Shown here piece by piece: positions 25,950 to 49,594 of a stretch of 64,000 nt of DNA (the stretch's first letter is position 1; each line of letters opens with the position of its first letter). The stretch lies in the NCBI GenBank assembly GCA_030602705.1, contig JAUVZF010000005.1:2663-66662 (forward strand), in the 5' to 3' direction. The position numbers were made by a program, and so were the translations under genes. Under the pieces are notes generated by a model. It made no database searches and had not been told where the DNA came from. It was given only the letters and a program-made list of their open reading frames with translations. The stretch is from Planctomycetota bacterium (GTDB taxonomy: Bacteria > Planctomycetota > Phycisphaerae > FEN-1346).

Positions 25950-27308
25950 TCAAGCGAACTGCCGCAGTTGCTCCCTGAACTGGAATTCCAGGCCGGCCCT
26001 CTCGTATAGTTCGCGCAGTTGGGTATCCGTAATATGTTCGAGTTTGATAACGCCCTGCTTCAACTGGTAAGAGTAATACCGCCAGTCCGAGGTCCTCAGC
26101 AGGTTGTGCTCTTTGCAGTAATCGTAGAGCGGGGTGCCGGGGAAAGGAGTTACGATCGAGAAGCCGGCACTATCCAGACCGTGATCGATGGCAAGTTCCT
26201 TGGCGAAGTTGATGGTGTCCTCGACCGTTTCGACGGTTTCGGTCGGATACCCCATCATGAAGTAGCCGTAGGAGGAGATGCCGCTCTTTGCAGTCATTTC
26301 TACGGTCCGGCGAACCTGCTCTGTCGTGAACCCCTTCTTGCAAAGGTCCAGTATCCTCTGATTTCCGAACTCAATCCCGTAGAAGACCACCCGACAGTTG
26401 GCCTGGCTCATGGCGGCCAAGAGTTCCTCCGACATCAGGCCGACCCTGCCGTCGCAGGCCCAGGCGAGGTCCTGGAGGCCCCTGCGGACCATTCCCTCGC
26501 ACAGCGCCATTGCCCACCGGCGGTTCGCAAGGAGGAGGTCATCGAGGAAGCGGACATACGTAACGCCAAGGTTGTTGCGGATCTGTTCGAGTTCATCGAG
26601 CACGTCGTCCACCGACCGTCTCCGTTGCCGTCTGCCCCAAATGGCCGGCGCGTCGCAGAACGCGCAGCAATACGGACAGCCCCGAGACGCGAGCACCGGG
26701 CTGAAGGGGACGCCACCGGTCCACGAGCCTGTGTAGGCGGGATGCCGCAACAGATCGCGAGCCGGAAGCGGCAACGTATCCAAGTCCTGAACGAACGGCC
26801 TGTCGGGCGTTACATGGACCTGGCCGTCGCGCCTAAAAGTGATACCTGCCACATCGGCCGGGTTTGTGCCGTCCCGCAGCGCTCTGAGCAACTCGACGGC
26901 TGTCAGTTCGCCCTCGCCTCTTACGCAGAAGTCGACCGCGTCGTGCTCAATAACCGCCCGATGCTCAAAATGGACGTGCGGCCCCCCAAGGATCACCGTC
27001 GTTTCGGGGTCGAGGCGCTTTACTGCGGCCGCGATACGCACAGCACTGTGGATTCTGGCGGTGATCGCCGTTATACCGACGACTTCGGGGCGTTCTCTCT
27101 CCACCTCAGCCAGCACGTCGTCGCTTGACAGGCGCAGGGCTCTGGACTCGACTATTCCAGAATCGACACCGTGGGCCCGCAGTGCTGCGGCGATGTACAG
27201 AAGGCCGAGAGGCGGATATGCCTCGTGCATTTCGGTGGCGATCTCCTGATCGCCCCCGCAGGAGCCAGCGAACAACTCGTCCGGCGGGTCTATAAGGAGG
27301 CATTTCAT
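25950..27308 (-). CDS. B12-binding-domain radical SAM protein (second paralog).
   Basis: Cobalamin-binding N-terminal region plus radical-SAM cysteine triad SRGCPYCCAFCDAP. Same overall layout as 20495..21901. Confidence 0.85.
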   Translation of the reverse strand: MKCLLIDPPDELFAGSCGGDQEIATEMHEAYPPLGLLYIAAALRAHGVDSGIVESRALRLSSDDVLAEVERERPEVVGITAITARIHSAVRIAAAVKRLDPETTVILGGPHVHFEHRAVIEHDAVDFCVRGEGELTAVELLRALRDGTNPADVAGITFRRDGQVHVTPDRPFVQDLDTLPLPARDLLRHPAYTGSWTGGVPFSPVLASRGCPYCCAFCDAPAIWGRRQRRRSVDDVLDELEQIRNNLGVTYVRFLDDLLLANRRWAMALCEGMVRRGLQDLAWACDGRVGLMSEELLAAMSQANCRVVFYGIEFGNQRILDLCKKGFTTEQVRRTVEMTAKSGISSYGYFMMGYPTETVETVEDTINFAKELAIDHGLDSAGFSIVTPFPGTPLYDYCKEHNLLRTSDWRYYSYQLKQGVIKLEHITDTQLRELYERAGLEFQFREQLRQFA

Positions 27309-27851: not shown

Positions 27852-29627
27852 TCATTGCGCGCTCTCGACACTTTCGGGAATGCCGGCTCGCCGCGCGCCG
27901 GCTCCCGCACGTTCGGCGGCCTGGATTGCTGCCACCGCCTTGTCGGTCTCGGCTGCGAGGCGTTCGATGTCGCCGTCCGCGAGCAGCGTTTCGAGTGTAG
28001 CGTGTGCCTGTTGGATATCGGCCACACGCTCGTCCGGCAACTGCTCGCCGGCGTCGCCGGTTCCCGCCAGGATGGCGGCGCTTTCGCTGAGCGCGTTGCG
28101 CGCACGGGTGCGTGCCTCGAATTCGCGACGGCGCCGCCTGTCTTCGGCGTAGAACGCCTCGGCTTCTCTGAGCCGCGCCCGCACGTCCGCCTCTCCAAGG
28201 AGGGCGTCGCTGCGGATCTCGATGCTGCTGCACTCGTCGGTCCGCAGGTCTTCCGCCTCGACCCGAACAACGCCGTCGGCATCGACGAAGAACGTCACTT
28301 CGACGCGGCCTCGCCCGCGTTCGAGCGGGTGGATGTCGAGGTTGAAACTACCGAGCGAGACGTTCTCGCCGGCCACCTCGCGTTCGCCCTGAAGCACCTC
28401 GATGTTCATCGATTGCTGTCCGTCGGCGGCGTTGGTGAACAACCGGTTTGCGGAACAGGGAATCGTAGTATTGCGGCGGATGAGCCGCGAGAACAGCCTG
28501 CCCTCGGTCTTGATTCCCAGCGACAGTGGAATGACATCGACCAGGACGGCCCTTCGCGGCAGCCCCGACAGCATGCCCGCCTGCACCGCGGCCCCGATTG
28601 CCACAACCTCGTCGGGGTTGACCTTTGTGTAGGGTTCCTGTCGAAACATCTCCCGGACCAGCGCCCGCACGGCGGGCATGCGCGTTGAGCCGCCGACCAA
28701 CACCACGCGGTCGATCTGATCGACCTCCAGGCGAGCGTCCTTGAGGGCTTGGCGGGTCGGCCCGACCATGCGGCCGAGGAGGTGCCTGGTGGCCGCCTCG
28801 AATTCAGCGCGCCTCACGCGCGATTGCAGTTCGTGATGCCGGTCCGTCTCGGCGGAGGCGACCGTCAGAGAGACGAATGCCTCGGCGTGGTCGGAGAGGT
28901 CGCGTTTGGCCTTCTCGGCGGCGTCCAGGGCTCGGCGCCTCAGTCTCCGGTCTGCCAAGACATCAAAGCCGGACTGCCGGCGGAACCGTTCCGCCAGGAG
29001 CATGAGCATGACCTCATCCCAATCATCTCCGCCCAGATGGTTGTCGCCGTTGACCGCCTTGACCTCGAACAGGCCGTCACCGAGTTCCAGGATCGAGACG
29101 TCGAACGTGCCGCCGCCCAGGTCCCAGATCAAGACGGTTTGGAGGTCCTCCCGGTCGAGGCCGTAAGCCAGTGCTGCGGCCGTAGGCTCGTTGATGACGC
29201 GCAGGACCTGGAGTCCGGCCAGCCGCCCCGCCTCGAGAGTTGCCTGACGCTGCGTATGGGTGAAGTACGCGGGTACGGTGATGACGGCGCGGCGGATTTC
29301 GGTGCCGAGCCGGGCGGCGGCCCGGGCCTTGACACCTTCCAGTATGCGGGCAGAGACTTCCTGGGGTGTCATCCGGCGTCCGCCCAGAGAGACGACATGG
29401 GCCGTGCCCATGCGTCTCTTGATCGAGAAGACGGCGTCGTCCGGCTCCGCTTCGGCGCGGGCGCGGGCCGGGGCGCCGGCGAGCACTCTGCCGCCGGCAT
29501 CGACTGCGACGACGGACGGCAACAGCCGCTCGCCGGCAGCGTCTGTGATGACCTCCGCGCGCCGGCCGTCGTAGAGTGCCGCGACGGAGAACGTTGTCCC
29601 CAGGTCGATGCCGATGGCCTCATGCAC
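27852..29627 (-). CDS. Hsp70-family chaperone (DnaK-like), about 590 aa.
   Basis: IGIDLGTTFSVAAL, AVITVPAYFTHTQRQAT, VLIWDLGGGTFDVSIL. Start taken at the GTG (VHEAIGIDLG) at 29627, 6 nt after a perfect AAGGAGG; the listed upstream extension overlaps gvpJ. Confidence 0.85.
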   Translation of the reverse strand: MHEAIGIDLGTTFSVAALYDGRRAEVITDAAGERLLPSVVAVDAGGRVLAGAPARARAEAEPDDAVFSIKRRMGTAHVVSLGGRRMTPQEVSARILEGVKARAAARLGTEIRRAVITVPAYFTHTQRQATLEAGRLAGLQVLRVINEPTAAALAYGLDREDLQTVLIWDLGGGTFDVSILELGDGLFEVKAVNGDNHLGGDDWDEVMLMLLAERFRRQSGFDVLADRRLRRRALDAAEKAKRDLSDHAEAFVSLTVASAETDRHHELQSRVRRAEFEAATRHLLGRMVGPTRQALKDARLEVDQIDRVVLVGGSTRMPAVRALVREMFRQEPYTKVNPDEVVAIGAAVQAGMLSGLPRRAVLVDVIPLSLGIKTEGRLFSRLIRRNTTIPCSANRLFTNAADGQQSMNIEVLQGEREVAGENVSLGSFNLDIHPLERGRGRVEVTFFVDADGVVRVEAEDLRTDECSSIEIRSDALLGEADVRARLREAEAFYAEDRRRRREFEARTRARNALSESAAILAGTGDAGEQLPDERVADIQQAHATLETLLADGDIERLAAETDKAVAAIQAAERAGAGARRAGIPESVESAQ

Positions 29628-29880
29628 GGATGGCCTCCTTCGGCTCCGGTGTTCTGCGGGCGCGTTCCCATGCGCGGATGTTCTCATCCCACTGGGTGAA
29701 TATGCCGTAGTTGAGCATGGTTTCCATGCCGGCCAGGGCCGCCCGCAGTTTCACGCCCAGCAGCGGAATGCCCGCCACCGAAATGACGACGTCGGCGTCG
29801 ATGATCAGTCCCTTTTCCAGGACGCGATCCAGCAGATCGACGAGTGTCGCTTTCGCCGCGAATTCGGGAACGTCGTTCAT
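29620..29880 (-). CDS. Gas vesicle protein of the GvpA/J/M family (GvpJ-like).
   Basis: ATLVDLLDRVLEKGLIIDADVVISVAGIPLLGVKLRAALAGMETMLNYG matches the GvpA-family core LxDxLDRxLDKGxVIxAD...GIELL. Confidence 0.8.
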   Translation of the reverse strand: MNDVPEFAAKATLVDLLDRVLEKGLIIDADVVISVAGIPLLGVKLRAALAGMETMLNYGIFTQWDENIRAWERARRTPEPKEAIRA

Positions 29881-29896: not shown

Positions 29897-30895
29897 CTAT
29901 GTAAAACTGTAAGGCGGCCACGGGCCCGTCACGCGGACCGAGAGGCCCTTGCCGGTGCAGTAATCCGTGAAGGCCGCCCTCAACGCCTCATCCGTGCCGT
30001 TCTCGACCAGGCAGGAGAGGTTCGCCACCATGCGCAGGTTGTCTTCGCCTGTCTTGAGTTTGCCGACCGACACCTCGACCGCGTGTCGGCCGGCCAGATC
30101 GAACGCCTCGCGGAAAACGGTCTCGGCACGTTTCAGGATCTGTTCCCTCACCCGCTTCTCCAACTCCTGCCTCTGGAAGTAGAGGGCGCCCTCGGATTTG
30201 CCGGTCAGGCCCTTTTTGAGTTCGACAACCTCCGGGCAGGTCGCCATCACGTCGGGCGTGGCCGATTCCACGTCCAGAAAGACCTGGACGCCGTACTCCT
30301 GCCGGCGTCGCACCCGGTCGGCTTTCTGGAGCAGTACGTCGCCCTCATCGTGGAGCCACCTTCGGAGGTGATCCGCGGCATCCGCACGGTCCTTTCCGGA
30401 GACCATCGTGTCGAACGCCATCGGCAGGACGGCCGCATAGCGCTGGCATGCTTCCGCCACCACCGCCTGATGGCGGATGACCCACTTCTCAACGGTTTCC
30501 TTGTCTTTCGAGGCATACGGCTTCGCCGCGCACTCATGGACAACGGCCACCAGGCCATTCCCAGGAACGGCAAACACTTCGGCGTCGTCGATGCCGGCGG
30601 TTTCAAACGGGATGGGCTCTCCCACCGTCACGGCATAGACGTAGAGGGCCCGCTGATGGGTGTCCTGGGCGTTTTCCGTTCTCGGCCGTGGGGATGCCTG
30701 TCTCGCCGGCCGCCCTTGGGGACCCGTTGCCGGCCCGCCCTCGACGAGGGAAAGCAGGGCGTCGACCTCGGCCGGGTCCGTCTGGACGCCGGCCGCGCCC
30801 AGCAGCGTGCTCAGGTTCTCACGTGTCACCGGTTTACCGGCCGATCTCAGCGTTGCTGCCGCATAGATCAGGCTCGCGTCGTCTCTTTTGTTCAT
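29897..30895 (-). CDS. GvpF/L-family gas vesicle protein with an N-terminal extension resembling the ribosomal P-stalk (aL12/P1/P2) N-terminal domain.
   Basis: The C-terminal two-thirds is GvpF/L-like (ALYVYAVTVG..., ending VTGPWPPYSFT). N-terminus LIYAAATLRSAGKPVTRENLSTLLGAAGVQTDPAEVDALLSLVEGG versus archaeal P1 [47 protein letters not shown]. Start overlaps the gvpK 3' end by ~60 nt, so the start is uncertain. Confidence 0.7.
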   Translation of the reverse strand: MNKRDDASLIYAAATLRSAGKPVTRENLSTLLGAAGVQTDPAEVDALLSLVEGGPATGPQGRPARQASPRPRTENAQDTHQRALYVYAVTVGEPIPFETAGIDDAEVFAVPGNGLVAVVHECAAKPYASKDKETVEKWVIRHQAVVAEACQRYAAVLPMAFDTMVSGKDRADAADHLRRWLHDEGDVLLQKADRVRRRQEYGVQVFLDVESATPDVMATCPEVVELKKGLTGKSEGALYFQRQELEKRVREQILKRAETVFREAFDLAGRHAVEVSVGKLKTGEDNLRMVANLSCLVENGTDEALRAAFTDYCTGKGLSVRVTGPWPPYSFT

Positions 30896-31214
30896 CGTTC
30901 ACCGCTCTGTTGGCCGCCTCCGTCACGCCCGGCGCGACGAGGGTCCGCAGGGCGTCGTCCACCAGGTCGTCGAGGCCTTCGCGGACGTTGGCGACCGCTT
31001 CTGAAATGCCCTGCTCCCGTTTGATCTGCTCGATGGCCTTGTCGAGTTCGATAAACGCGTTGCCGAGCCGCTCGACCTCCTCTTCGGTAAGGCTGCCGCC
31101 TTCCACACGGCGCATGGCCTGGAGGCGCAGGGCGTCTCGAATGATCTCGATAAGCGCGAGGACGAGCCCCAACAGGCCGGCCTTGAGTTTTTTCTCGTCG
31201 ATATTGATTGCCAC
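30834..31214 (-). CDS. gvpK: Gas vesicle protein GvpK.
   Basis: LLGLVLALIEIIRDALRLQAMRRVEGGSLTEEEVERLGNAF is the GvpK signature. Confidence 0.8.
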   Translation of the reverse strand: MAINIDEKKLKAGLLGLVLALIEIIRDALRLQAMRRVEGGSLTEEEVERLGNAFIELDKAIEQIKREQGISEAVANVREGLDDLVDDALRTLVAPGVTEAANRAVNDEQKRRREPDLCGSNAEIGR

Positions 31215-31241: not shown

Positions 31242-31634
31242 TTAGGCCTTCATCGCCTCCGCGCTGATCCAACCGCACCACGGGCAGCCCTGCTCGATCA
31301 ATTCCGTACGCGCCATGCGCTTGCCGCACTGCGGGCAGGTGTCCTTGGCCTCCATTGCGTCCTTCCATGCTGGCGTCTGGAGGTTGGTGCCGGAGGGGAA
31401 CTCAAGGCCGTACTGGGCGGCGGTCTCAAACGATGCCAGCGCCGCCCGGATCCTGATGCCCAGCAGTTCCACGCCGACAAGGTCAATCGTGATATCGGCG
31501 TTGATCACGAGGCCCTTGTCGAGGATACGGTCAACGAGATCGACAAGGGTGCCGCCCTGTCGCTGGGGGGCCTGTTGCTGGAGGGCCTGTTCAGGAGCCA
31601 CGAATTCTCCTTCCCTTCGCCTTGGCAAGCGCAA
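31242..31634 (-). CDS. GvpA/J-family gas vesicle protein fused to a C-terminal C4 zinc ribbon.
   Basis: GvpA-family core [48 protein letters not shown], then ...CPQCGKRM...CPWCGW at the C-terminus. Confidence 0.7.
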   Translation of the reverse strand: MRLPRRREGEFVAPEQALQQQAPQRQGGTLVDLVDRILDKGLVINADITIDLVGVELLGIRIRAALASFETAAQYGLEFPSGTNLQTPAWKDAMEAKDTCPQCGKRMARTELIEQGCPWCGWISAEAMKA

Positions 31635-32625
31635 CCATTTCCCTGCCGAGATCGGTGGTGTGGTATCGGCGTCCCCCTAGCGCGGCCAGAAGCCCCTTGT
31701 CGCACAGTTTCTTGCGCAGCATTTGCACGTAGCCGTCGGTCAGACGGGTACGGTACGGGACATTGGGGGCCTGGCCGGCGTCTTCCGCCTCACAGTAGGC
31801 TCGGAGGACCTGTAGTTCCGTGGCGGTGGGTGACGCCCGCGTTTGAGGGGCCCCGCCGGTGTCCGAACGGTGTGGAGTGACCACGCCCTTGCCTTTGCAC
31901 CCCTTACAGTACAAGTTAGTACCGGGCTCTTTGCCCCTTCCCCGACAGGTGGCGCACGTGATCGCCCCCTCATCAACCTCGACGTATCCGCGCCCTCGGC
32001 AGACCAGACAGGTCACATAGTTCCTGGCCTCTTTCGAACCGCGGCCCTTGCAGAAAGCGCACACGACCACAGGCGGCTTAAGCACGATCGCTCCCGTGCC
32101 GTGACAGACGGGACACCTGGTGCCGGCCGGGCGTTCGCCCTTGCCCTTGCAGAAGGAGCAAAGCAGGTGGCTCTCGTACAAGAGTTCAGCCGGCCCCGAA
32201 GTCCACTTCTTGACAGTGCCCTTTGGGCTGGACCCGCCACTGCCGGCCACCCTGATCGCATTCCACAGATCAGGTTCTTGGCCCGGCTTTGCAAAGGACC
32301 TGGCTTGCGGCGAGCGACGAACGCCACGGCCCATAACCTTCCAGGGCTCGCCTTCCCGGAAGGAGACGGGCTGGGCCCCTGTGTCACCGCCGGCGGGCGC
32401 CAGCACATCCCCATTGCCGCCAACCGCCTGTTTACCTTTTTGGGTGACACAGAATCCCCGATTGGGCTTGAAAGCCACATAATCGGCCTTGACGAGGTCG
32501 ATGCACAGCCCGAGGGCCTCTTCGACGGTCGTACCGATTCTCTCGCTGACAGCGCCCGTGGATGCATGTCCATCCAACGCAGCCACGGCCTCCAGTGCTT
32601 GTTGTTCGATCGTGCTCGCACTCAT
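31591..32625 (-). CDS. wHTH, DnaJ-type zinc-finger repeats, wHTH three-part protein.
   Basis: N-terminal wHTH, central CSFCKGKGE/CPVCHGTGA/CAFCKGRGS/CLVCRGRGY/CATCRGRGK/CKGCKGKGV, and C-terminal ...TDGYVQMLRKKLCDKGLL. Start probably at MSASTIEQ with SD GGGAGA. Confidence 0.6.
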   Translation of the reverse strand: MSASTIEQQALEAVAALDGHASTGAVSERIGTTVEEALGLCIDLVKADYVAFKPNRGFCVTQKGKQAVGGNGDVLAPAGGDTGAQPVSFREGEPWKVMGRGVRRSPQARSFAKPGQEPDLWNAIRVAGSGGSSPKGTVKKWTSGPAELLYESHLLCSFCKGKGERPAGTRCPVCHGTGAIVLKPPVVVCAFCKGRGSKEARNYVTCLVCRGRGYVEVDEGAITCATCRGRGKEPGTNLYCKGCKGKGVVTPHRSDTGGAPQTRASPTATELQVLRAYCEAEDAGQAPNVPYRTRLTDGYVQMLRKKLCDKGLLAALGGRRYHTTDLGREMVALAKAKGRRIRGS

Positions 32626-32739
32626 GTTTACCGTCTCCCTTGCCATGAGGTGTTGGCTCAGTTCCAGGCTGACTTGGGCCGGTTTTCATCGGCGCCGCGA
32701 GGCTGCAACGGCCCGCGTGCCGCGTTCGGCCGCGGCGGT

Positions 32740-33018
32740 TTATTCTGCGGCAGCCTCGTCTGCCCGCGCGCGCCTTGCCCTTTGTTCTGCTTGCAGTTCT
32801 CGGACCTTCGACCGCCAGGTTTCGCGAGGGACGTCCGGTTCGTCGTCCGTCTCCTTTCCGGTCCGTGTGCCCGTAAAATGCTCTATAGGCGACTCGCGCC
32901 CTGTTGAATAGCGGATCCTGCCGTAGCGCCTGTTTTTCCGCTGATACCGCCTCAGTTCGTCCCAGTCCATGCCCGTGGACTTCTTGACCTTTGACTTTCT
33001 ACCGATCGAGTACCTCAT
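32740..33018 (-). CDS. Small 'YSTG'-motif protein (92 aa), paralog of 34305..34556.
   Basis: MRYSIGRKSKVKKSTGMDWDEL...RIRYSTGRESPIEHFTGTRTG aligns with MKYSTGKSGRVLHSTGTEWDEV...RVRYSTGRDSRMLHFTGTMTG. Confidence 0.5.
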   Translation of the reverse strand: MRYSIGRKSKVKKSTGMDWDELRRYQRKNRRYGRIRYSTGRESPIEHFTGTRTGKETDDEPDVPRETWRSKVRELQAEQRARRARADEAAAE

Positions 33019-33060
33019 CTTCCGTCCTCCGATCGTGCCCGCGGTTGCAAAGAAGAGCGC

Positions 33061-33753
33061 CTACTCGTCAGGCACATACTGAATCTTGGTTCCACAGTTG
33101 TGACACGCTACTTTCTTCCCGCTGAGAGGAAGTGAAACGATCTCGTCACATGTGGGACAGTATTCCCAAGACTTGCCTTCAACGGGCTCTCGATCGATTG
33201 GTTTGCCAGCCTTCAAACCTCGTCTTCCCCGCACCGGGACAGGCCTGTAGGGCTTGATGGGGACAGGGGTGTAAGGCTTGATGGGGACCGGCGTGTAGTC
33301 CTTGATGGGCACCGGCTTGTAGGGTTTGAGCGGCGCCGGCGTATAGTCCTTGAGGGGGGCCGGCCTATAGTCCTTGAGCGGCGCCGGCCTATAGGGCTTG
33401 AGCGGCGCCGGGGTGTAGGCCTTGGGAGGGACAGGCTTGTAGGGCTTAGGCGGCACCGGCGTGTAGTCCTTGACAGGGACAGGCTCGTAAGGCTTAAGCG
33501 GCACCGGTGTATAGTCCTTTAGCGGGGCTGGCGTGTAGTCCTTCAGAGGGGCGGGCTTGTAAGGCTTAAGCGGCACTGGCGTGTAGTCTTTGAGTGGGAC
33601 CGGCTTGTAAGGTTTAGGCGGCACTGGCCTGTAGGGCTTTAACGCCACCGGCCTGTAGGGTTTGGACGAACCCGGCGACGGTGTCCGCTTTGTAGTTGAA
33701 GGTTGATGACGGCTGTCGGTCCGCATGTTAATCTGCTTTCCTGTGAGGGGCAA
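33061..33753 (-). CDS. Proline-rich octapeptide-repeat protein (about 25 copies of KPYxPVPLK/DYTPxPLK) with a C-terminal zinc ribbon.
   Basis: The protein is dominated by P-x-P-L-K-(D/P)-Y-(T/K) octads. The DNA shows the matching 24-bp periodicity at 33200-33700. C-terminus CPTCDEIV...CHNCGTK. Confidence 0.6.
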   Translation of the reverse strand: MPLTGKQINMRTDSRHQPSTTKRTPSPGSSKPYRPVALKPYRPVPPKPYKPVPLKDYTPVPLKPYKPAPLKDYTPAPLKDYTPVPLKPYEPVPVKDYTPVPPKPYKPVPPKAYTPAPLKPYRPAPLKDYRPAPLKDYTPAPLKPYKPVPIKDYTPVPIKPYTPVPIKPYRPVPVRGRRGLKAGKPIDREPVEGKSWEYCPTCDEIVSLPLSGKKVACHNCGTKIQYVPDE

Positions 33754-34039
33754 CTCCTTCCGCGATTTCGTTTCGATCCAGGTACGACTTCAGAATCCAG
33801 AGTTGCCGATAGCCCATGATTCGGCGGAACCTTTTTTCGGCGTCCCGTCCCGATCCCGAGGCCTCGGAAAGACCGGGGCGGCCCGGTGAAGCACCATCGC
33901 TCCAGCCTGCCACCGGCTCACGCCGCGCGTCCGCCGCTCAGCGGAACCTCTGGAAGCATCGAGGCGGCCCATAGCCGCGCCACCGGCCGCTGGACCACCC
34001 GTTCCGTAAGCGAGCCATCTTGTCCGTAGGCCCGGACCG

Positions 34040-34175
34040 CCTCGGCCTCGACCACATGGACGGTTTTTCGGGCTTTGAAAACCGCGAGCGTTTTTCGGGC
34101 GGCCCGGAGAACACAGAGGGACGTTCGGGCCGCTCGGAAAACACGGAGGGACGTTCTGGCGGCTCCGACCAGCGC
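34040..34175. repeat. Three to four tandem ~30-bp repeats, TTYKGGCBGCYCGGARAACACRGAGGGACG, in an apparently non-coding gap.
   Basis: Read from the sequence. The overlapping ORF 33938..34399 has GC3 near 65%, against 85-90% in the neighbouring genes. Confidence 0.4.
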
Positions 34176-34304
34176 GATGATTCCCTGTGCCGTCGTCTTG
34201 GCGCGACTATCCAGTTTTCCATTCTGTTTTGCTCCCGGCTATGCGCTATCTCGGGCCGGCTGACCTGCCCGGCAAGGACTGCCGGCACAGGTTGACCTGG
34301 CCAT

Positions 34305-34556
34305 TCACCAAGGGAACCGCTCTTGCCGACTTTCGTTTTCATCCCTGACGTCGGGCTTGGGCCGGGGCTCAGGTTCGTCCTCGTCCTCAGGGGGCTCATA
34401 GCCCGTCATTGTGCCCGTGAAATGCAGCATGCGCGAGTCGCGGCCCGTTGAATAGCGGACCCTGCTATTGCGCTTCTTCTTTTGTCGTTCCACTTCATCC
34501 CATTCGGTACCCGTTGAATGGAGTACTCGTCCGCTTTTTCCGGTGGAGTATTTCAT
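34305..34556 (-). CDS. Small 'YSTG'-motif protein (83 aa), paralog of 32740..33018.
   Basis: See the paralog alignment above; acidic C-terminal tail. Confidence 0.5.
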   Translation of the reverse strand: MKYSTGKSGRVLHSTGTEWDEVERQKKKRNSRVRYSTGRDSRMLHFTGTMTGYEPPEDEDEPEPRPKPDVRDENESRQERFPW

Positions 34557-34645
34557 GCCACACTGCTCCTCGTGATTGCGAGTTTCCGGCGCTTGTCCTT
34601 TTCCTGTTTCGCCTGCTCAGTCGGTCGGTGCGCTTGTATCCTTCA

Positions 34646-35101
34646 TCAGTACTCCATTGGCATTCGCTGCCATTTGCCGCGCTTGCCCTTCCGCGTTCTC
34701 GGAAATCCGCGAACGTTCATGCGCTCCTGGAGCGTCGAGACGATCACGGGGCCTCGCCAGCGGATCGCCAGCCATCGCAGCGTGCCGGTGCCTGCAAGTT
34801 TAATCGCCACGTGGCTGTTGGGGGCAAAGCACGTGTCCGTAAGGAGTTTGTCCCCAAGGCAGATACAACCGTCCTCGATCGCGAACCGACCGGTCGCCAA
34901 AACACACTCGAATATGCTCAATGCCGGCACGAAGCCGATTCGAAAAACAAAAAGGTACTCCTTGCGGCTGCCGCAATTCTTCAGACCCACGAGAATATAC
35001 GCCGCTTCGGTGGCATCGAGCATGCGGCAGTGTCTCCAGAGATTGCGTCCGACGTGGATACGTCCGTCGTCGTCCACCTTACTGAAGGCGCGCATCAACA
35101 T
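34646..35101 (-). CDS. Hypothetical protein with an N-terminal AbrB/SpoVT/MazE-like swapped-hairpin motif.
   Basis: MLMRAFSKVDDDGRIHVGRNLWRHC resembles the AbrB-N fold (KVDxxGRIxIP). Noticeably lower GC. Confidence 0.4.
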   Translation of the reverse strand: MLMRAFSKVDDDGRIHVGRNLWRHCRMLDATEAAYILVGLKNCGSRKEYLFVFRIGFVPALSIFECVLATGRFAIEDGCICLGDKLLTDTCFAPNSHVAIKLAGTGTLRWLAIRWRGPVIVSTLQERMNVRGFPRTRKGKRGKWQRMPMEY

Positions 35102-35109: not shown

Positions 35110-35880
35110 TTACCCCTTACGCCGTTTTCTCTTGGCAGGCGATTTTTTCTTCGCCGGCTTGGCAGTTTTCGCGGCAGGTTCTTCGCCGGCGGCCTCGATC
35201 TGCGCTTTCAGGCGGCGGAACTCGGCCTGGGTGATGTCGCCGGTCTCCAGTTTCATCCGCATGGCGAGCAGTTGCTCGGCCGCGCTCCGTTTCTGTCTTG
35301 ATGCGGCATCGCGAACGCCCTTGGCGATTCGATGCACTAAGCGCGGCCCGCCCAGCACCGGCTGGCTCAGGAACCAGGCCAGCGCGCTGATCAGGCCTAT
35401 CTCTTTGGGTCGGCCGGGGCGGAAAGGCGTGTCCCGGAACTCGGCCGGCCAGTTCGCGCCCCGGGTCCCGAAGTGCCGCGCAAGCGTAATCCGGCCTGTA
35501 ACATTCGCCGGCGACGGGAGACGCCTGCTGATCGATGCGGCGGGAAACTGGCCGGCACCCGGCAGATACCGGCAGGTACGAACCTTCGACACTGCGGCCG
35601 TGGGAGGCAAGGCCGCTGCGGCGATCGTGGGTTCGGCCTTCTTCGCGGCCGCGCGGGGTGCCGCGGCTCTGCGCGCCCCCTCGCCGTCGCCTCCGGAGGG
35701 TCTTTTCTTCGCGCGCGCGGCCTTCTTCGCGGCCGCGCGGGGGTCCACGGCGCTGCGTGCCCCTTCGCCGTCGCCTCTGGGAGGCTTCTTCTTCGCACGC
35801 GCGGTCCGCCTCGCCGCCGTGCGGGTCTTGACGTTCCTGCGGGCGGTCTTGGCGCGGTCTGTGGAAATCTTTCTGATCAT
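35110..35880 (-). CDS. Basic, low-complexity N-terminus joined to a GvpG-like C-terminal domain.
   Basis: C-terminus LISALAWFLSQPVLGGPRLVHRIAKGVRDAASRQKRSAAEQLLAMRMKLETGDITQAEFRRLKAQIEAA parallels GvpG (LLLxPVxG...W...I......LL.LQ...GEISEEEF). N-terminus is a KKA/RAA-rich repeat. Confidence 0.5.
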   Translation of the reverse strand: MIRKISTDRAKTARRNVKTRTAARRTARAKKKPPRGDGEGARSAVDPRAAAKKAARAKKRPSGGDGEGARRAAAPRAAAKKAEPTIAAAALPPTAAVSKVRTCRYLPGAGQFPAASISRRLPSPANVTGRITLARHFGTRGANWPAEFRDTPFRPGRPKEIGLISALAWFLSQPVLGGPRLVHRIAKGVRDAASRQKRSAAEQLLAMRMKLETGDITQAEFRRLKAQIEAAGEEPAAKTAKPAKKKSPAKRKRRKG

Positions 35881-37928
35881 CCTTTTCTCCCCACGTCAAA
35901 CAAGATCGACTCGATGTCCCTGAGGGCGTCCAGCCCTGCAATCGGCTGGGGCAACAGGGGCACCGAGACGACGCGCAGACCGGGATGTGCCTTGCGAAAC
36001 CTGGCCCGGTGCTGCTCCTGTACCTTTCTGGTGCGTCGGCAGAAGGCGCACCGGTTCTTGGGGATCATCTTGTTGAAGACGACCGAATGGACACCGACGC
36101 CCAGTCCGGAGAGCCGTTCGATGAGGCGCTGCGACTCGCGGACGGCCATCTTCTCGGCGACCGTCACAACGACCGATTCGGCCTGCGCGGGGTCCGTCAG
36201 GATGGCCTGAAAACGGCGCAGGCCGCGGGCCAGATCGACCATCTCCTCGCCGGCGGTGTGCCCGTACTTGAGCAATACTTTGAAGATGGCTCGCAGCCAG
36301 GCATGGGCCAGTTCAGGCAGTTCGAGAAACCGCAGCGCATGGCCGGTAGGCGCCATGTCGAAAACGAACAAGTCGTACTGCCCGCCGTCGGCCAGGTCCA
36401 TCACGCTCTTGAGGAACATGATCTCATCGACGCCGGGAGGAGAAAGCGACGCGAACTGCTGCATCGATTCCTTTTCGAACCGGACTTGCACTCCGCTGGA
36501 GGTGAGATTGTCGAAGATGCCGGTAATCGAATCGCCGTAACGCTGCCGGAAACGCTCGAACATCACCTCCGGATCCTGCTCGCAGGCGAAGAGGTTCTCG
36601 GCCGCCACGGACACGATCTCAGGACCGACGGGCGAACCGAGGCAATCGGCCAGGGAATGGGCCGGGTCCGCCGAGAACACGAGGACCCGCTTGTCGGGGT
36701 GGGCACCGGCCAGGCGCAGGCCCGTGGCGGCGGCCAGCGATGTCTTGCCCACGCCGCCCTTGCCCGCGAAGAACGTGAAACGAACGCCCTCGGTGAGCAC
36801 CAGTGGTTCGCCCGGCTTGCACCGGACGGGACGCGTCTCCTTCCCTTGCTTTGGCACCGATCGGACGAACGGATTGACCGAGGTAGGTTCGTCGGCGAGG
36901 CCCTCCAGCACGCCCACAACGCGGTTCAGGCCCTCTTTGCCGTGCACCTCGCCGGCAAACAAGGGGACAGGCAGCAATTTCCGGGGTGACAGCGCCGTCG
37001 TAGCGGCGAGCACCGATGATTGCCAGTGATTTCTGGCGGCACAGAACGCACACTTGGCCGGCTCGACCAACTGATTCACGATCAGTCGTTTTACATGGAT
37101 TCCCAGAGCGGCCAGTTCTTGCAGAAGGCGCTCTGTCTCGGCAAGGGCCATCGGCTCGGCGATCGTCACCGGAACGAATTCCGCCCGGTCACGCGCCGTG
37201 AACATTTGCCTGGCCCTCTCAATCCTCCGATCAAAGTTGATCAGGAACCGCTCCGCGGCGTCAACCGGCGGACGCTTCCGACCGCGGAAATGACGTTTCA
37301 GATAGCGGAACTTGCGCTGCATGATGTCCAGGGCCTTCAGCCAGCGCTTCATCTCCCCCGGCATGGTCAGGAAGCACAGCGCGTGCCCGGTCGGCGCGGT
37401 GTCCACCAGGATTAAACCCCATTGGCCCTCGTCCAGCAGGCGTGCGATCTCCACGACCGCCATCACCTCGTCCACGCCCGGAAGCGTCAGGTCGAAGAAG
37501 CCATCGATGTCGGAGCGGTCCAGGAGCGTCCCCCGATCGAGCAGGGTGCGCAAGGCTTCGCCGTTCTCCCTGGCAAAGGCGTCCGCCAGGCTCGCCGCGT
37601 CGAGTTCCATCGCCCACAGGCCGTCGGCGCCCCGGACGGGAACCGCCTCCGCGCCGACGGTCTGGCCGAGGCTGTCGGCCAGCGAGTGGGCCGGGTCGAC
37701 AGACAGGACGAGAATCCTGCGACCGTCGCGCGAGGGGCGGCGGGCGATGGCGAGTGCGGCGGCGGCTGCCAGCGTCGTCTTGCCCACACCGCCCTTGCCG
37801 CCGAAGAACACGAGTTGTGCCCCGGCCCATTCGTCGAGAAACCCCTTCGGCGGGGCGACCTGCGGCCGCGCTGCCGGCGGCCGCGCCGGCGGCGCCGTCG
37901 GGATCGCTTGTGCCATGGACACAGCCAA
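35877..37928 (-). CDS. ArsA/Get3-family ATPase, internally duplicated into two halves.
   Basis: Two P-loops (FFGGKGGVGKTTLAAAAALA and FFAGKGGVGKTSLAAATGLRLA), two DPAHSLAD(S/C)LG motifs, and two A-loops (VDTAPTGHALCFL, FDMAPTGHALRFL). Confidence 0.8.
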   Translation of the reverse strand: MAVSMAQAIPTAPPARPPAARPQVAPPKGFLDEWAGAQLVFFGGKGGVGKTTLAAAAALAIARRPSRDGRRILVLSVDPAHSLADSLGQTVGAEAVPVRGADGLWAMELDAASLADAFARENGEALRTLLDRGTLLDRSDIDGFFDLTLPGVDEVMAVVEIARLLDEGQWGLILVDTAPTGHALCFLTMPGEMKRWLKALDIMQRKFRYLKRHFRGRKRPPVDAAERFLINFDRRIERARQMFTARDRAEFVPVTIAEPMALAETERLLQELAALGIHVKRLIVNQLVEPAKCAFCAARNHWQSSVLAATTALSPRKLLPVPLFAGEVHGKEGLNRVVGVLEGLADEPTSVNPFVRSVPKQGKETRPVRCKPGEPLVLTEGVRFTFFAGKGGVGKTSLAAATGLRLAGAHPDKRVLVFSADPAHSLADCLGSPVGPEIVSVAAENLFACEQDPEVMFERFRQRYGDSITGIFDNLTSSGVQVRFEKESMQQFASLSPPGVDEIMFLKSVMDLADGGQYDLFVFDMAPTGHALRFLELPELAHAWLRAIFKVLLKYGHTAGEEMVDLARGLRRFQAILTDPAQAESVVVTVAEKMAVRESQRLIERLSGLGVGVHSVVFNKMIPKNRCAFCRRTRKVQEQHRARFRKAHPGLRVVSVPLLPQPIAGLDALRDIESILFDVGRKG

Positions 37929-37932: not shown

Positions 37933-38262
37933 TCAGCCTCCCCCTTTGAGGACGGGGATGAAGCCGCGCGAAACGGTCCTGGACACGGCCCTGAGGCCGG
38001 CCTCGGAAAGCACGTAGGTCTTTACCTTTGGAAGGGTCTTTATGGGCGAGGGGCCGCGGCCAGGGGCTGCTTCAGAGCCGCCCCTGATGTGGGCTCCGGT
38101 GTTCGCCTGTTTATGGCACCGGAGATAGCCGTCCTCGACCAGGACCTGGCACGCGGCCTCTACCTTGGAGGCTTGCATGCAGATTCGCCGGGCGATACTG
38201 ACCGCCCTGGCCTTTCGGAGTTCGCGCACGACGCTGAGTATCTGTTTCTCAATGCCTTTCAA
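37933..38262 (-). CDS. Small wHTH protein of the cluster family.
   Basis: ARRICMQASKVEAACQVLVEDGYL. Weaker match to the family motif. Confidence 0.45.
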   Translation of the reverse strand: MKGIEKQILSVVRELRKARAVSIARRICMQASKVEAACQVLVEDGYLRCHKQANTGAHIRGGSEAAPGRGPSPIKTLPKVKTYVLSEAGLRAVSRTVSRGFIPVLKGGG

Positions 38263-38687
38263 GGGACTACCCTCCCTCCGTCTCCGATTGCGCCCGCAAC
38301 CGCCCGGGCGTCGGCCTGGGGCGGCTCTGCTGAACCCGTGGTCCAGAGGCGGTATTTCTCTTGTGGGGAAAGCGGCTTCTGATCATCGCTCCGGCTGTCG
38401 GCATCTTGGGATCCGCCGTGGCCGGGCTTCCCGGCGTCGGCCCCTTCGGAAGCCTCCGGCGGCACTGCGGGTTCGGGCGCGGCTTTGCGCAGAGCGGCCA
38501 TGCCCTTTTCGGTGAGCCTGACCCGGCCGTTTCTGAACACGTCCACGTAGTCGCTCATTCCCAGGCCGCGGCAGACAATTCGGGCATAGTCGGAACTCAT
38601 CTTGATCTGGGCGGCGATGGCCGAGACCGACGCTTCGCCGCCTTTTTTTCGCACGGCTTTCAGGACTTCAAGTTCGGTTCCTCCCAC
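38259..38687 (-). CDS. wHTH protein of the cluster family with an acidic disordered tail.
   Basis: VSAIAAQIKMSSDYARIVCRGLGMSDYVDV. Confidence 0.5.
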   Translation of the reverse strand: MGGTELEVLKAVRKKGGEASVSAIAAQIKMSSDYARIVCRGLGMSDYVDVFRNGRVRLTEKGMAALRKAAPEPAVPPEASEGADAGKPGHGGSQDADSRSDDQKPLSPQEKYRLWTTGSAEPPQADARAVAGAIGDGGRVVP

Positions 38688-39262: not shown

Positions 39263-41560
39263 TCACCGATTCTCCTCTTCCAGCAGGACTTCCTCCCGTG
39301 GTGCGTCTGACAGACCGTGTCTGAACCGTCGTGGCGGCGGCTTTCTTGGCGGATGCGCCTCAAGAACCGGACGTTGCCATGCACGCTCGTGATGATGGCC
39401 GGCGTGAGTCGGGCAAGGCGGGGCATCGGCCGCGCCGCCGCCGTAGAGTTCGGCGCCCATGCGGTCGAGGGCGTCCGGTCCCCGCACCTCTTGAGGAAAC
39501 TGGCGGACCGCCGTTACGACGCAGCCGATGGACGAGGCGAAGTCGGCGATCTCATCGACGCAAGCGAGTTGCTGGCACCGTTTGGCGGCGCAGAACGCGC
39601 AGTCCGTCGCGGGCGCCAGGAAGTTGCAGACGATGCGTGCTACGGGGATTCCGGCCGCCGTCACCGTCTCGAGCATCCGCTGCATCTCGAGTTTGCCCAT
39701 GGCCTCGGCGATCGTGACGGCGACCAGTTCCGTTTGGGCCGGGTCGGTCAGGGCGGCGTGCATCGTCTTGACGGCGTTGGTTGAGCGCACCATTCGCTCC
39801 GCAAGCGTGGCCAGGTGCTCGACGGGGCGCCTCTGTTGGTACTTGAGGATGGCCCGGTAGGTTACACGGAGCCAATCCTTGATTAGTTCCGGGAAGGCCA
39901 GGAGTTTGAGCATGTGCCCGGTGGGCGCCGGGTCGAGCACGTAGAGGTCGAACCGGTCGGCCTCGGTGAAGTCAAAGAGACGCTCCATCACGAGCACTTC
40001 CTCGACGCCCGGCGGGTAACTCTTGACGTACTCGAGCAGGGTGCCGCGGTCGAACTTGATCCGGTCCAGGTTCATGACGCCGATTTCGTGGCTTTCCCAG
40101 GCCTCGAAGGCGGCGTTGATGTTCTCGACGTACTCGGCACGGAACTTCTCGTAGAGCGCCGCGGCGTCCAGTTCCAGCGCGGTCAGGTTGTCGCGGCCGG
40201 GAACCGCGGTCAGGGAGTCGCCGATCTCCAGGTCGAGCGAGTCTCCGAGCGAATGCGCCGGGTCGGTCGAGACCACGAGAACTCGCTTCTCGGGGTAACG
40301 CCGCGCCAGGCGCAGCGCGGTGCTTGCCGACACGGACGTCTTGCCGACGCCGCCCTTGCCGGCGAAGATGAGGAACCGTTTGCCCGCTTCCACGGCCAGT
40401 TCGCTGGGAGGGGCGATTGAGCCGGACACGCTCACGCGGTTCGGCCCGGCCGGCTGCGGGGGCATCGGCTGCACGGAATCATTCTCGCCGGCCAGGACCT
40501 GGCCGTAGCGCACCAGGGCTTCCTGTCCGCGTATCTCTTCGGGGGAAAGTGGAACCTGGAGGATGCGGCGGGGAGCGAACTGCTCCTGAATCTGCTTCAG
40601 ATACGGCGTTTGCCCTTCCGCCTGCGACCGGCAGAAGGGGCAGTCCGGGTCGGCACGTCGCACGCGGTTGACGATCACGTTGCCGGCGGCAATGCCCTGG
40701 CGGTCGAGCGCCCGGGCGAGGCGCACCGTCTCGGCGACGCCCATCTCCTCGGGGATGGTCACCATGACGAACTCGCATCGCGCGGGGTCGGTGAGGAGTT
40801 TCCCGACAAACTCCATGTGCTTAATCAATTTGCTCAGGAACTGCGGCACTCCCCGTCCGCCCCTTTCCTGGCCGGGAATATTGAACAGACCCAGGCCCTG
40901 CAGGCCGGCCGAGGTCCGGTGATACTTGTTGAACGACCTCTTGAAGAGCGTGACCCAGCGAGCGTATTTTTCGGGCATCGTCAGCAGCCGCAGAGTGTGG
41001 CCCGTCGGCGCGGTGTCGATGACCACCAGGTCGCAGCGTGTGGAGGGGAGCGGATCGTGCGGGATGCCGCGCTGCAAGTACTCCGCCACGGCGGCGAAGA
41101 TCATCAGGTCTTCCATGCCGGGCAGACGGAAGGCGAGGAAATCGCGGATATCCGCCTGGTTGGAGAAGACGGTGCCGCGGGCCATTTGCTTGAGGTGCTT
41201 GCCGTACCTGCGTTTGAAGGTCGCCAGCAGGGAGGGCGGATCGACCTCGACCGCCGAGAGGTTGGGGACACCGCGCACGCGAACGATCTTCGGCCCCACG
41301 GACTGGTCAAGACTGTCGCCGAGCGAGTGGGCCGGATCGGTCGACATGATCAGCACCTGGCGGTCGGGCATGGCTTGGACCAGGCGCAGAGCGGTGGCGG
41401 CCGACGAGGTCGTCTTGCCGGTTCCACCCTTGCCGCCGAAGAACAGCAGTTGCAGAGAAGACGGGGCGCTCAGGAAACTCGGCGCCGCCTGCTTGCCGCC
41501 GCTATCCTGCTGGACAGCCTGTTGCTGTGTGGCTTCGGCTAGTAACGCTTGCGCGCTCAT
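39263..41560 (-). CDS. ArsA/Get3-family ATPase, internally duplicated (second paralog, 765 aa).
   Basis: FFGGKGGTGKTTSSAATALRL / STDPAHSLGDSL / IDTAPTGHTLRLL in half 1, and FAGKGGVGKTSVSASTALRLA / STDPAHSLGDSL / LDPAPTGHMLKLL in half 2. Confidence 0.8.
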   Translation of the reverse strand: MSAQALLAEATQQQAVQQDSGGKQAAPSFLSAPSSLQLLFFGGKGGTGKTTSSAATALRLVQAMPDRQVLIMSTDPAHSLGDSLDQSVGPKIVRVRGVPNLSAVEVDPPSLLATFKRRYGKHLKQMARGTVFSNQADIRDFLAFRLPGMEDLMIFAAVAEYLQRGIPHDPLPSTRCDLVVIDTAPTGHTLRLLTMPEKYARWVTLFKRSFNKYHRTSAGLQGLGLFNIPGQERGGRGVPQFLSKLIKHMEFVGKLLTDPARCEFVMVTIPEEMGVAETVRLARALDRQGIAAGNVIVNRVRRADPDCPFCRSQAEGQTPYLKQIQEQFAPRRILQVPLSPEEIRGQEALVRYGQVLAGENDSVQPMPPQPAGPNRVSVSGSIAPPSELAVEAGKRFLIFAGKGGVGKTSVSASTALRLARRYPEKRVLVVSTDPAHSLGDSLDLEIGDSLTAVPGRDNLTALELDAAALYEKFRAEYVENINAAFEAWESHEIGVMNLDRIKFDRGTLLEYVKSYPPGVEEVLVMERLFDFTEADRFDLYVLDPAPTGHMLKLLAFPELIKDWLRVTYRAILKYQQRRPVEHLATLAERMVRSTNAVKTMHAALTDPAQTELVAVTIAEAMGKLEMQRMLETVTAAGIPVARIVCNFLAPATDCAFCAAKRCQQLACVDEIADFASSIGCVVTAVRQFPQEVRGPDALDRMGAELYGGGAADAPPCPTHAGHHHERAWQRPVLEAHPPRKPPPRRFRHGLSDAPREEVLLEEENR

Positions 41561-42484: not shown

Positions 42485-42619
42485 GATGTGGCCTCCGCAC
42501 AATCCGGCGATCCTCTCCGGCGGGGCATGGCAGGTCCGGCACAGGCCGGTTGGTCAGGCCTGGAGCGGTCCCGCCGTCACGGCCTGTCCGCGCTATGCCA
42601 ACCATCCAGCCGGAGGCGG

Positions 42620-42895
42620 CTACTCTTCGACGAGGGCAACCGCGGTGTCGATGCGCTTCCGCAGTCCGGTCCGCTTGAATCCCGCGACGTTGCCATTGTC
42701 GTCGAGGACGACGTCGTAGGTGGCGAGGATGTCCATGCCGTCGGGCAGTGAGTGCTTCTCGACCACGTCGATCGAGACGCGCCATCCTTCGCCTTCGCGG
42801 TTGGCGGAGAGCGTGCTTCCGAGTTCCAGCCCCGTCAACGAGGCCAACTCGCTACGGGCGGCCTCAACGATGTCAGCCATTCCCATTCCTGCCAT
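42620..42895 (-). CDS. gvpO: Gas vesicle protein GvpO.
   Basis: GEGWRVSIDVVEKHSLPDGMDILATYDVVLDDNGNVAGFKRTGLRKRID matches the GvpO core (..GW.a.vEvvE...vPDtqDilg.Y.v.lDd.G.v.gy.R...Y.R.D). Confidence 0.7.
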   Translation of the reverse strand: MAGMGMADIVEAARSELASLTGLELGSTLSANREGEGWRVSIDVVEKHSLPDGMDILATYDVVLDDNGNVAGFKRTGLRKRIDTAVALVEE

Positions 42896-47419: not shown

Positions 47420-47535
47420 GACGACTTTCCTGTTGCTCTCCCGCCGCTCGCCCGGTAGGCGCACGCCGCGGATGGGTATGCCGGCGCCGTCGCTTGCGTT
47501 CCTCGAGCCCGCCGCCTCAGGAGACCGGCAGTAAC

Positions 47536-48126: not shown

Positions 48127-48200
48127 GGTTCGATTCCTCTCTCGGTTTGTCGGCCCGGCGCCGCTTCCGATTGCGGAGGGTCTGCCCCGCGGCGCCTTGT

Positions 48201-49469: not shown

Positions 49470-49594
49470 GGTCTGCCTCCGGGTCTGGAGAGGCGCCTTC
49501 CTCGGGAAGCCAGGCGAACCGCCGGTGCCATCTCTATGGTTTTGATGGGGCACATGTGCGGGTCCCCGAACGGCTTCCGAGGAAGGCTCCCTCT

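Follow-up and report, generated by a model that had tools for sequence, protein, structure and literature searches.

What is encoded by a run of short tandem repeats in the middle of a gas-vesicle gene cluster, and what could its products do there? This question is raised by positions 32740-34556 of a 64,000-nt stretch of Planctomycetota DNA (contig JAUVZF010000005.1), which was analysed as a whole and is referred to as the window. The block is located on the minus strand, inside a long co-directional gene array. A preliminary description, made from the letters alone, had called three open reading frames (ORFs) in it and assigned them to a gas-vesicle setting. Both points hold: the three ORFs are genes, and Pfam and NCBIfam matches identify a full set of gas-vesicle (gvp) genes in the window (GvpA/J/K/L/F/G/O and a GvpN-like AAA protein). 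We conclude with high confidence that the block comprises four real minus-strand protein-coding genes, and with the same confidence that all four belong, as lineage-specific accessory components, to an expanded gvp cluster rich in chaperones. From upstream to downstream, the block contains:

34305-34556, minus strand: YSTG2, 83 amino acids (aa), with a ~55-aa core and an acidic tail; GAGGAG Shine-Dalgarno-like motif 9 nt upstream.
33938-34222, minus strand: gene X, 94 aa (MENWIV...), with five decapeptides; ATG at 34222 to TGA at 33938.
34049-34177, minus strand: decapeptide-repeat region of gene X, codons 16-58; core of the tandem repeat at 34094-34163.
33727-33937, minus strand: spacer separating gene X from the octad gene, with no stop in the gene X frame until a TAA at 33728-33730, 1 nt before the octad ATG.
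33061-33726, minus strand: octad-repeat zinc-ribbon protein, 221 aa from the ATG at 33726; an alternative TTG at 33753 (ORF 33061-33753) gives 230 aa.
33232-33663, minus strand: array of 18 in-register octads, residues 22-165.
33082-33186, minus strand: four-cysteine zinc ribbon (C190, C193, C208, C211; CPxCG...CxxC).
32740-33018, minus strand: YSTG1, 92 aa, with a C-terminal helix; GGAGGA Shine-Dalgarno motif upstream.

Gene X and the octad gene are thus placed between two YSTG copies. Pfam, NCBIfam, Rfam and the PDB contain nothing equivalent to the YSTG, gene X and octad families; for YSTG this agrees with the earlier impression of an undescribed family. All three were found only in the expanded type of gvp cluster. 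What is new here are three conserved, undescribed small-protein families, whose functions are proposed from sequence. Tandem repeats were called with Tandem Repeats Finder (TRF), structure models are AlphaFold2 predictions, Pfam matches of window proteins were accepted at E<=0.01, and Rfam covariance models were scanned at E<=1 against both strands of 32600-34700. L001 to L017 denote the comparison loci and P00xx numbers the family member proteins. A scan for sigma-70 promoters and terminators gave nothing above shuffled expectation, and upstream of the octad gene inspection by eye revealed no sigma-54 element of the -24/-12 type.

The octad protein probably starts at ATG 33726 rather than at TTG 33753, as the former is preceded by an AGGAAAG Shine-Dalgarno-like motif. 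Its gene carries a 24-bp-based tandem repeat (33235-33668; TRF score up to 406 for a 120-bp period) within the sole long ORF of this region, which runs on the minus strand. The repeat translates into octads of the form K-[P/D]-Y-[T/R/K]-P-[V/A]-P-[L/P/I/V]. Lysine at position 1, tyrosine at position 3 and proline at position 5 are present in all 18 units, and proline at position 7 in 17 of them. The remaining positions vary within narrow limits (position 2: P 10, D 7, A 1; position 4: T 8, R 5, K 4, E 1; position 6: V 12, A 6; position 8: L 10, P 3, I 3, V 2), and the array has a net charge of +19. The preliminary description had counted some 25 octads making up about 80% of the protein; we find exactly 18 in register, corresponding to 144 of 221 aa or 65%. 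Its C-terminal CPTC...CHNC ribbon was recognised correctly: C190-P-T-C193 and C208-H-N-C211 lie within the last 56 residues and are conserved in the family.

In the AlphaFold2 model the octad array is devoid of secondary structure (predicted local distance difference test score, pLDDT, ~63-83). No helix is predicted anywhere in residues 22-165, where the prolines at positions 5 and 7 alone account for 35 of 144 residues. The ribbon is modelled as two beta hairpins (pLDDT 79-89), and its four cysteines are invariant or nearly so in the family, both in keeping with a zinc-ribbon fold. Small zinc ribbons such as those of eS31/S27a, RpoP, LysW and the TMEM55B cytosolic domain likewise combine CPxC...CxxC, 14 intervening residues and two beta hairpins, but all profile and fold matches of the octad ribbon to them stay below significance. 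The family profile had no significant match among PDB sequences; Foldseek with the octad model against the PDB gave nothing at E<=0.001, just small zinc modules; and Pfam returned generic zinc-ribbon matches for the ribbon, all of them sub-threshold. Two further ideas were rejected. A docking module shared between the octad ribbon and the ribbon of the GvpJ-like neighbour found no support, the two being without similarity (E=2.1). A 16-residue super-repeat of KPY and KDY units, which would correspond to the 48.8 Å pitch of the ribs, fared no better, since the alternation of P and D is irregular and TRF showed no preferred higher period.

Homologs of the octad protein form 13 clusters at 90% identity (E 1e-46 to 6e-19) and retain frame, period and zinc ribbon at 39-62% identity. 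We define this family by at least eight in-register K-x-Y-x-P-x-P-x units, a ~50-aa tail of the type CPxCG...CxxCxNK and location in a gvp cluster, all of which apply to the window protein. Each of the 13 clusters has a variable N-terminal region followed by 8-19 octads. In 12 of them the ~50-residue tail reads CPxCGExI-x-L-x3-G-x2-M-x-C-x2-C-x-N-K-V-x-Y, the exception being P0061 with a different C-terminus. Within the arrays, whose net charge ranges from +11 to +19, a single 7-residue unit (in P0057) is the only departure from the 8-residue register. Over 138 octads from 11 proteins, entropy amounts to 0.74, 0.00, 0.53 and 0.34 bits at positions 1, 3, 5 and 7 (the tyrosine being present in 138 of 138 units), as against 1.9-2.1 bits at positions 2, 4, 6 and 8. 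Variation of the array out of frame between relatives, which had been named in advance as a sign of non-coding DNA, was not seen: arrays differ by whole units only and the ribbon stays in frame.

All octad genes whose context we examined belong to gvp clusters, in different positions in four sub-lineages: between the YSTG paralogs (window, L001, L003), after Hsp70, B12-radical SAM and tetratricopeptide repeat (TPR) genes (L014, L017), with GvpL/F on one side and a long GvpA-fusion protein on the other (L015), and behind two ArsA genes, ahead of a DnaJ-type zinc finger (L016). Other combinations of octads exist as well. A 358-aa protein of L007 (1632-2708) consists of 4-5 octads followed by four winged-helix-like repeats; P0061 has a winged-helix-like module in place of the ribbon, and P0059 has one at its N-terminus. 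This module is cluster-specific and is also seen in two window proteins, the DnaJ-type zinc finger at 31591-32646 and the product of 37933-38687. Sequence comparison points to modular shuffling of octad, zinc-ribbon, CxxCxGxG, winged-helix and YSTG modules. The octad array is difficult for short-read assembly, and copy numbers, including the 18 of the window, are provisional for this reason; in L002 (4247-5041) the array is broken by a run of N, i.e. a scaffold gap.

The ~30-bp repeat upstream of the octad gene exists (TRF 34094-34163, 2.3 copies, 85% matches), with degenerate copies on its flanks. A repeat search recovered no more than a weak 17-nt pair in this region, for which TRF and the codon register were more informative. 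It had been taken for non-coding DNA of low GC content at third codon positions (GC3), possibly a small RNA. None of this was borne out. GC3 is 0.72 in the relevant frame, inside the range of the neighbouring genes; Rfam gave no match on either strand, and no promoter-like site was seen in the spacer. The region codes for gene X, which opens with M-E-N-W-I-V-A-P-R-R-R-H-R-E-S and continues with five copies of a decapeptide S-x-[F/W]-S-x-x-P-E-[K/R]-x (S-R-W-S-E-P-P-E-R-P; S-V-F-S-E-R-P-E-R-P; S-V-F-S-G-P-P-E-K-R; S-R-F-S-K-P-E-K-P; S-M-W-S-R-P...). L001 has a version of 122 aa (4495-4863). L003 and the independent assembly L002 have a single 327-aa ORF starting with M-E-S-W-I-V..., in which decapeptides of the S-x-F-S-x-x-P-E-K type, a low-complexity linker, the octad array and the zinc ribbon follow one another. 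In this related metagenome lineage, gene X and the octad protein are therefore one polypeptide, joined by an in-frame fusion.

Over the first 58 codons, the gene X frame is one of three that are open across all three loci, and it scores 2.7-2.8 BLOSUM units per position, none of the other frames exceeding 2.05. Among the 24 invariant residues, nine are encoded by differing synonymous codons, and the ATG and a Shine-Dalgarno motif (AAGGAGG in L001) are conserved. Some points speak against its coding status. Codon-usage log-odds, which were favourable for YSTG1, YSTG2 and the octad array, were ambiguous for gene X, with an off-frame scoring higher; differences are spread near-evenly over the three codon positions; and a word-based search found no further homologs, leaving three lineages as carriers. 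The poor codon score and the even spread of differences are expected for a fast-evolving, compositionally odd repeat. As codon usage did not support gene X, its coding status rests on the comparative evidence. The protein alignment is conserved to residue 93, and past the stop, conservation relative to L001 and L003 is no longer clear. Since conservation ends near the stop codon of the window, we regard gene X in the window as a gene of its own, of 94 aa, and rejected a TGA-readthrough or nonsense reading.

The two flanking ORFs had been described as paralogs, and they are: YSTG1 and YSTG2 share 54% identity across their first 54 aa (E=6e-18). A word-indexed search gave three close homologs. 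An exhaustive profile search of 1.84 billion representative proteins at E<=1e-3 yielded a family of 44 proteins, 14 of these below 1e-10; YSTG2 was matched by the profile at E=3.6e-26, and the local hidden Markov model matches YSTG1 and YSTG2 at E ~1e-33 each. The consensus M-K-Y-S-T-G-R-G-T-R-V-K-H-S-T-x-M-E-W-D-E-L-E-K-x-K-K-K-Y-x-P-I-K-Y-S-T-G-E-x-x-x-I-R-H-x-T-G-T-E-F-D-Y contains four [K/R]-[Y/H]-S-T-G units arranged as two ~20-residue halves and is followed by a variable charged tail. Membership in the family requires this ~55-aa N-terminal core (four units of [K/R]-[Y/H]-[S/A]-T-[G/A]; W-[D/E]-E...K-K-K in the middle) and a gene placed behind that of a ~150-aa protein within a gvp cluster; both window copies conform to this. 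None of 43 members had a Pfam or NCBIfam match in the core, and a profile search found no significant PDB relative. A few members carry an added CxxCxGxG or CxxC zinc module. In the model of YSTG1 the conserved core reaches a pLDDT of ~60, whereas the C-terminal helix (residues 68-91) exceeds 90; we read the core as a peptide-like module that may fold on a partner.

The gene order around YSTG (ArsA, GvpG-like, ~150-aa protein, YSTG, DnaJ-type zinc finger, GvpA/J, GvpK, GvpL/F) is kept wherever the available DNA suffices (L001-L003, L006, L009, L011, L012), with YSTG of L006 directly before Hsp70. A single YSTG gene occupies the conserved position in L006, L011 and L012, without an octad gene there, and independent tandem pairs occur in L009 and L014. 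The orthologs of YSTG2 in L001 (4145-4471) and L003 (2243-2560) have core identities of 73-80%, those of YSTG1 in the same loci 82-88%, while the two types share only 44-53%. As identity within types exceeds that between types, the duplication is older than the split of the window, L001 and L003 lineages. YSTG is a real, undescribed and cluster-specific family.

What, then, could the octad protein do in a gas-vesicle cluster? Its features are those predicted for a non-globular, extended and strongly basic rod attached to a small zinc-ribbon module. We tentatively favour, at somewhat less than an even chance, that it is a rod that binds or templates the shell lattice. A polyproline-II helix rises by ~3.1 Å per residue, and 18 x 8 residues would then span ~45 nm. 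The 8-residue register, with K1, Y3, P5 and P7 invariant, may be so strict on account of repeated docking of the rod onto a partner that is itself periodic; conservation of a period without insertions or deletions is, in our view, the pattern of periodic-lattice binders. The most likely partner would be the GvpA rib lattice of the gas-vesicle shell. GvpA subunits are spaced by 12.07-12.1 Å along the rib and by ~12.7 Å at the outer surface (PMC9994262, PMC10185304), so that one octad (~25 Å) could span two subunits (2 x 12.1-12.7 Å). While the shell nucleates or grows, the rod might staple it, space it or serve as its template. The gene X decapeptides and the YSTG mini-proteins would be short, largely disordered arrays of aromatic-Ser motifs, probably co-assembling adaptors of the same machinery.

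The preliminary description had likened the octad protein to GvpC, which stands as a reasonable functional analogy and fails as an assignment to the family. Like cyanobacterial GvpC (PF01304), it is a tandem-repeat protein encoded in a gvp cluster, and its repeat would be commensurate with a whole number of GvpA subunits: a 33-residue GvpC repeat helix (33 aa x 1.5 Å = 49.5 Å) spans four GvpA subunits (PMC9994262), whereas an octad (8 aa x ~3.1 Å = ~25 Å) would span two. The GvpC site sits above GvpA's C-terminus, which is negatively charged (PMC10185304), and the octad array is basic. On the other hand, cyanobacterial GvpC consists of alpha-helical, amphipathic 33-residue repeats and is encoded beside gvpA; the octad protein is proline-rich and extended, has no helices and a period of 8, matches neither PF01304 nor any other Pfam family at E<=0.01 nor any NCBIfam model, and its gene is not next to gvpA. 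GvpC of Halobacterium salinarum has seven repeats of 38-40 aa, together with a C-terminal globular part that bears a zinc-finger motif (PMC9372576). This resembles the order of N-terminal array (22-165) and C-terminal Cys4 module (190-211) in the octad protein, also within a gvp cluster, but in architecture only, since the chemistry and length of the repeats are entirely different.

Several points weigh against a lattice-binding rod. The canonical GvpC position, directly downstream of gvpA, is filled by another repeat protein (52892-54250, minus strand), which has about six tandem 47-residue, helical-looking repeats (AELVTQFHQENLDIRAEADTTVKDLAQQNAALIAEAAEEDKARAQEM) and a winged-helix-like C-terminus. 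Although it has no PF01304 match, it is likely a GvpC-type shell protein with an unusual repeat length, and because it is the better positional candidate, a simple GvpC label for the octad protein is weakened. The octad gene itself lies ~21 kb from gvpA, in the part of the cluster that encodes GvpJ/K/L/F and chaperones. Furthermore, with the three residues per turn of an ideal polyproline-II helix, successive octads would be rotationally non-equivalent; a single conserved face would fit a beta-like extended chain only. Finally, the fusions of octads to winged-helix-like modules instead of the ribbon (the L007 protein and P0061) fit a generic linker as well as a lattice binder. The more far-reaching proposal, which we consider rather doubtful, is that the octad protein represents a new structural class of shell-binding protein, a polyproline-type staple or template reading pairs of GvpA, that gene X and YSTG are new aromatic-Ser adaptors, possibly modified by radical SAM enzymes, and that assembly by ArsA, Hsp70 and CDC48 is distinct from the canonical GvpN/GvpC route.

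The octads could instead serve as a chaperone scaffold, the basic, hydrophobic and proline-rich K-P-Y-x-P-V-P-L units acting as multivalent extended-peptide ligands of the substrate-binding domain of the cluster Hsp70 or of the TPR protein and thereby concentrating chaperones where the hydrophobic GvpA or GvpJ is assembled. Proline-rich antimicrobial peptides with motifs of the Y-L-P-R-P type bind the substrate cleft of DnaK, TPR domains bind extended peptides, and the cluster encodes Hsp70, TPR, Hsp20, two ArsA, a CDC48-like AAA protein and many DnaJ-type zinc-finger proteins. The octad gene of L014 and L017 directly follows Hsp70, B12-radical SAM and TPR genes, but this adjacency is confined to one sub-lineage; a register kept without insertions or deletions over 8-19 units is more than chaperone ligands need, and the octad protein has neither a J-domain nor an EEVD-like motif. 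We consider this function unlikely, and give a similarly low rank to a stiff spacer of set length that holds two docking modules apart (an aromatic/basic N-terminal region, gene X, on one side and a zinc ribbon or winged-helix module on the opposite one) and so spaces or bundles vesicles or positions an assembly factor. The comparison here is with the proline-rich spacer of TonB and other polyproline-II rods, with which the octad array shares a long, proline-rich, charged, non-globular and probably stiff extended chain. The shuffling of octads with zinc ribbons, winged-helix-like repeats (L007, P0061, P0059) and variable N-termini would suit a spacer, as would copy numbers of 8-19 (~20-47 nm) and the fusion or fission with gene X. 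Yet a spacer does not require an invariant lysine and tyrosine in every unit; TonB-type spacers are simple X-Pro dipeptide repeats, periplasmic, with no invariant tyrosine and no zinc ribbon.

Much less probable, in our judgement, is that the octads and the aromatic-Ser motifs of gene X and YSTG are substrates of the two B12-radical SAM enzymes, being modified or cross-linked into a cured structural material of the mussel-foot or extensin kind or into a product resembling ribosomally synthesized and post-translationally modified peptides. Three small proteins do contain repeated short motifs with invariant aromatic residues, and B12-radical SAM genes are found in the window cluster (two), in L014 (two) and beside the octad gene in L017 (one). 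However, those of the window lie 5-12 kb from the block rather than adjacent to it, some contigs that carry YSTG members show no radical SAM gene within their length, leader/core organisation is lacking and no protease or exporter was seen; the target of the enzymes could equally be GvpA or a lipid. That the block is non-coding tandem DNA with chance ORFs of a GC-rich genome is barely credible and effectively already refuted. Many spurious ORFs do arise at 60-65% GC, gene X scores poorly in its own frame, and an exact-sequence look-up found no record of the octad and gene X products in the protein collection. These points are outweighed by protein conservation at 39-62% identity with frame and period kept, synonymous variation at conserved residues, conserved start codons and Shine-Dalgarno motifs, synteny in more than ten loci and the lack of any Rfam match.

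Among known protein shells, only gas vesicles enclose gas, and a single kind of external shell-binding protein, the alpha-helical GvpC, is known to us. Gas vesicles are being engineered as acoustic reporter genes. How the shell is nucleated is still an open question (PMC9994262). With the cluster type described here, a chaperone-heavy assembly set gains three small-protein families that are conserved and undescribed. Should the octad rod read the GvpA lattice with a non-helical 8-residue code, it would offer a second and orthogonal means by which vesicles could be tuned or functionalised and could point to control of nucleation or width; if it does not bind the lattice, ordinary lineage-specific hypothetical proteins remain. 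The octad, gene X and YSTG proteins are accessory repeat proteins of gas-vesicle clusters, and their families are real, rare and linked to a nanostructure under active study; their function we infer entirely.

The surroundings of the block are listed below, all on the minus strand and, unless stated otherwise, assigned by Pfam/NCBIfam. Extras of this cluster type are two ArsA, Hsp70, Hsp20, CDC48-like AAA, DnaJ-type zinc-finger and B12-radical SAM genes. Gas-vesicle operons with ArsA homologs have been described before (PMC2963123); for the other additions our literature searches gave nothing, including those combining "gas vesicle" with "radical SAM" or "proline-rich".

54282-54557, minus strand: GvpA (NF006874, 122 bits, cut-off 100).
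52892-54250, minus strand: 47-residue-repeat protein introduced above.
52201-52788, minus strand: DnaJ-type CxxCxGxG zinc-finger protein.
51063-52088 and 48564-49553, minus strand: two GvpN-like AAA_5 proteins.
47536-48405, minus strand: Hsp20.
45227-47464, minus strand: CDC48-like double AAA protein.
44208-45227 and 43453-44205, minus strand: GvpL/F, two genes.
43191-43439, minus strand: GvpG.
42620-42895, minus strand: GvpO.
41579-42502, minus strand: DnaJ-type zinc-finger protein.
39263-41560 and 35877-37928, minus strand: two double-domain ArsA ATPases.
35110-35880, minus strand: GvpG-like protein, 256 aa.
34646-35101, minus strand: 151-aa protein ending in ...RMPMEY, without a Pfam/NCBIfam family.
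31591-32646, minus strand: DnaJ-type zinc finger with winged-helix-like ends.
31242-31634, minus strand: GvpJ-like protein that ends in a zinc ribbon, encoded 1.1 kb downstream of the block (PF00741, E=1.9e-15; NCBIfam halo GvpJ, E=7e-27).
30834-31214, minus strand: GvpK.
29897-30895, minus strand: GvpL/F.
27852-29687, minus strand: Hsp70.
25950-27308, minus strand: B12-binding radical SAM protein.
25019-25933, minus strand: TPR protein.
20495-21901, minus strand: second B12-radical SAM protein.

B12-binding radical SAM proteins are a conserved part of this cluster type, with two genes in the window, two in L014 (7670-8950 and 12362-13747) and one in L017 (1714-3156); L014 and L017 share the gene order Hsp70, radical SAM, TPR, octad protein. 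In this cluster type the 151-aa protein stands ahead of the YSTG gene throughout, as seen in L001, L002, L003, L006, L011 and L012. Its ORF and that at 50883-51059 (minus strand) both start with M-[AL]-L-M-R-A-F-[SA]-K-V-D-[DE]-[DE]-G-[RK]-I, which by eye resembles a swapped-hairpin motif of the AbrB/VatN type; Pfam matches to these ORFs were sub-threshold only (AbrB-like E=0.021, CDC48_N E=0.076). Each of the two is followed by a small protein with a C-terminal ...[D/E/P]-Y tail. A terminal Phi-x-Phi-[D/E/P]-Y-COOH is common to several otherwise unrelated cluster proteins (window 34646-35101 and, on the minus strand, 50530-50868; L006 5510-5974 and 5995-6399) and to many YSTG members (P0012, P0013, P0016, P0018, P0026, P0029, P0034, P0035, P0040), examples being ...RMPMEY, ...AMEINY, ...FKTISLDY, ...FKSMKAEY and ...KKMDLPY. 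It may be a tail used for docking, perhaps on Hsp20 as an IxI-like ligand, or on TPR or AAA proteins.

Proteins with a GvpA/J domain have extra C-terminal parts in this cluster type. In the window copy (31242-31634) this is a CPQC...CPWCGW zinc ribbon. Fusions of 367-384 aa are found in L006 (4184-5302), L014 (1578-2681) and L015 (2769-3923), and a similar C-terminal ribbon ends at least the one of L006. The GvpG-like gene contains an 84-bp tandem repeat (35634-35825, minus strand; 2.3 copies, 83% matches by TRF) that encodes ~28-aa repeats rich in Lys, Ala and Arg. As the orthologs are shorter (190 aa in L001 and 174 aa in L002, compared with 256 aa in the window), this expansion is lineage-specific. 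The GC content of the window is 0.66-0.71 in positions 1-8000, 0.56-0.63 over ~8-27 kb and ~0.63-0.67 thereafter.

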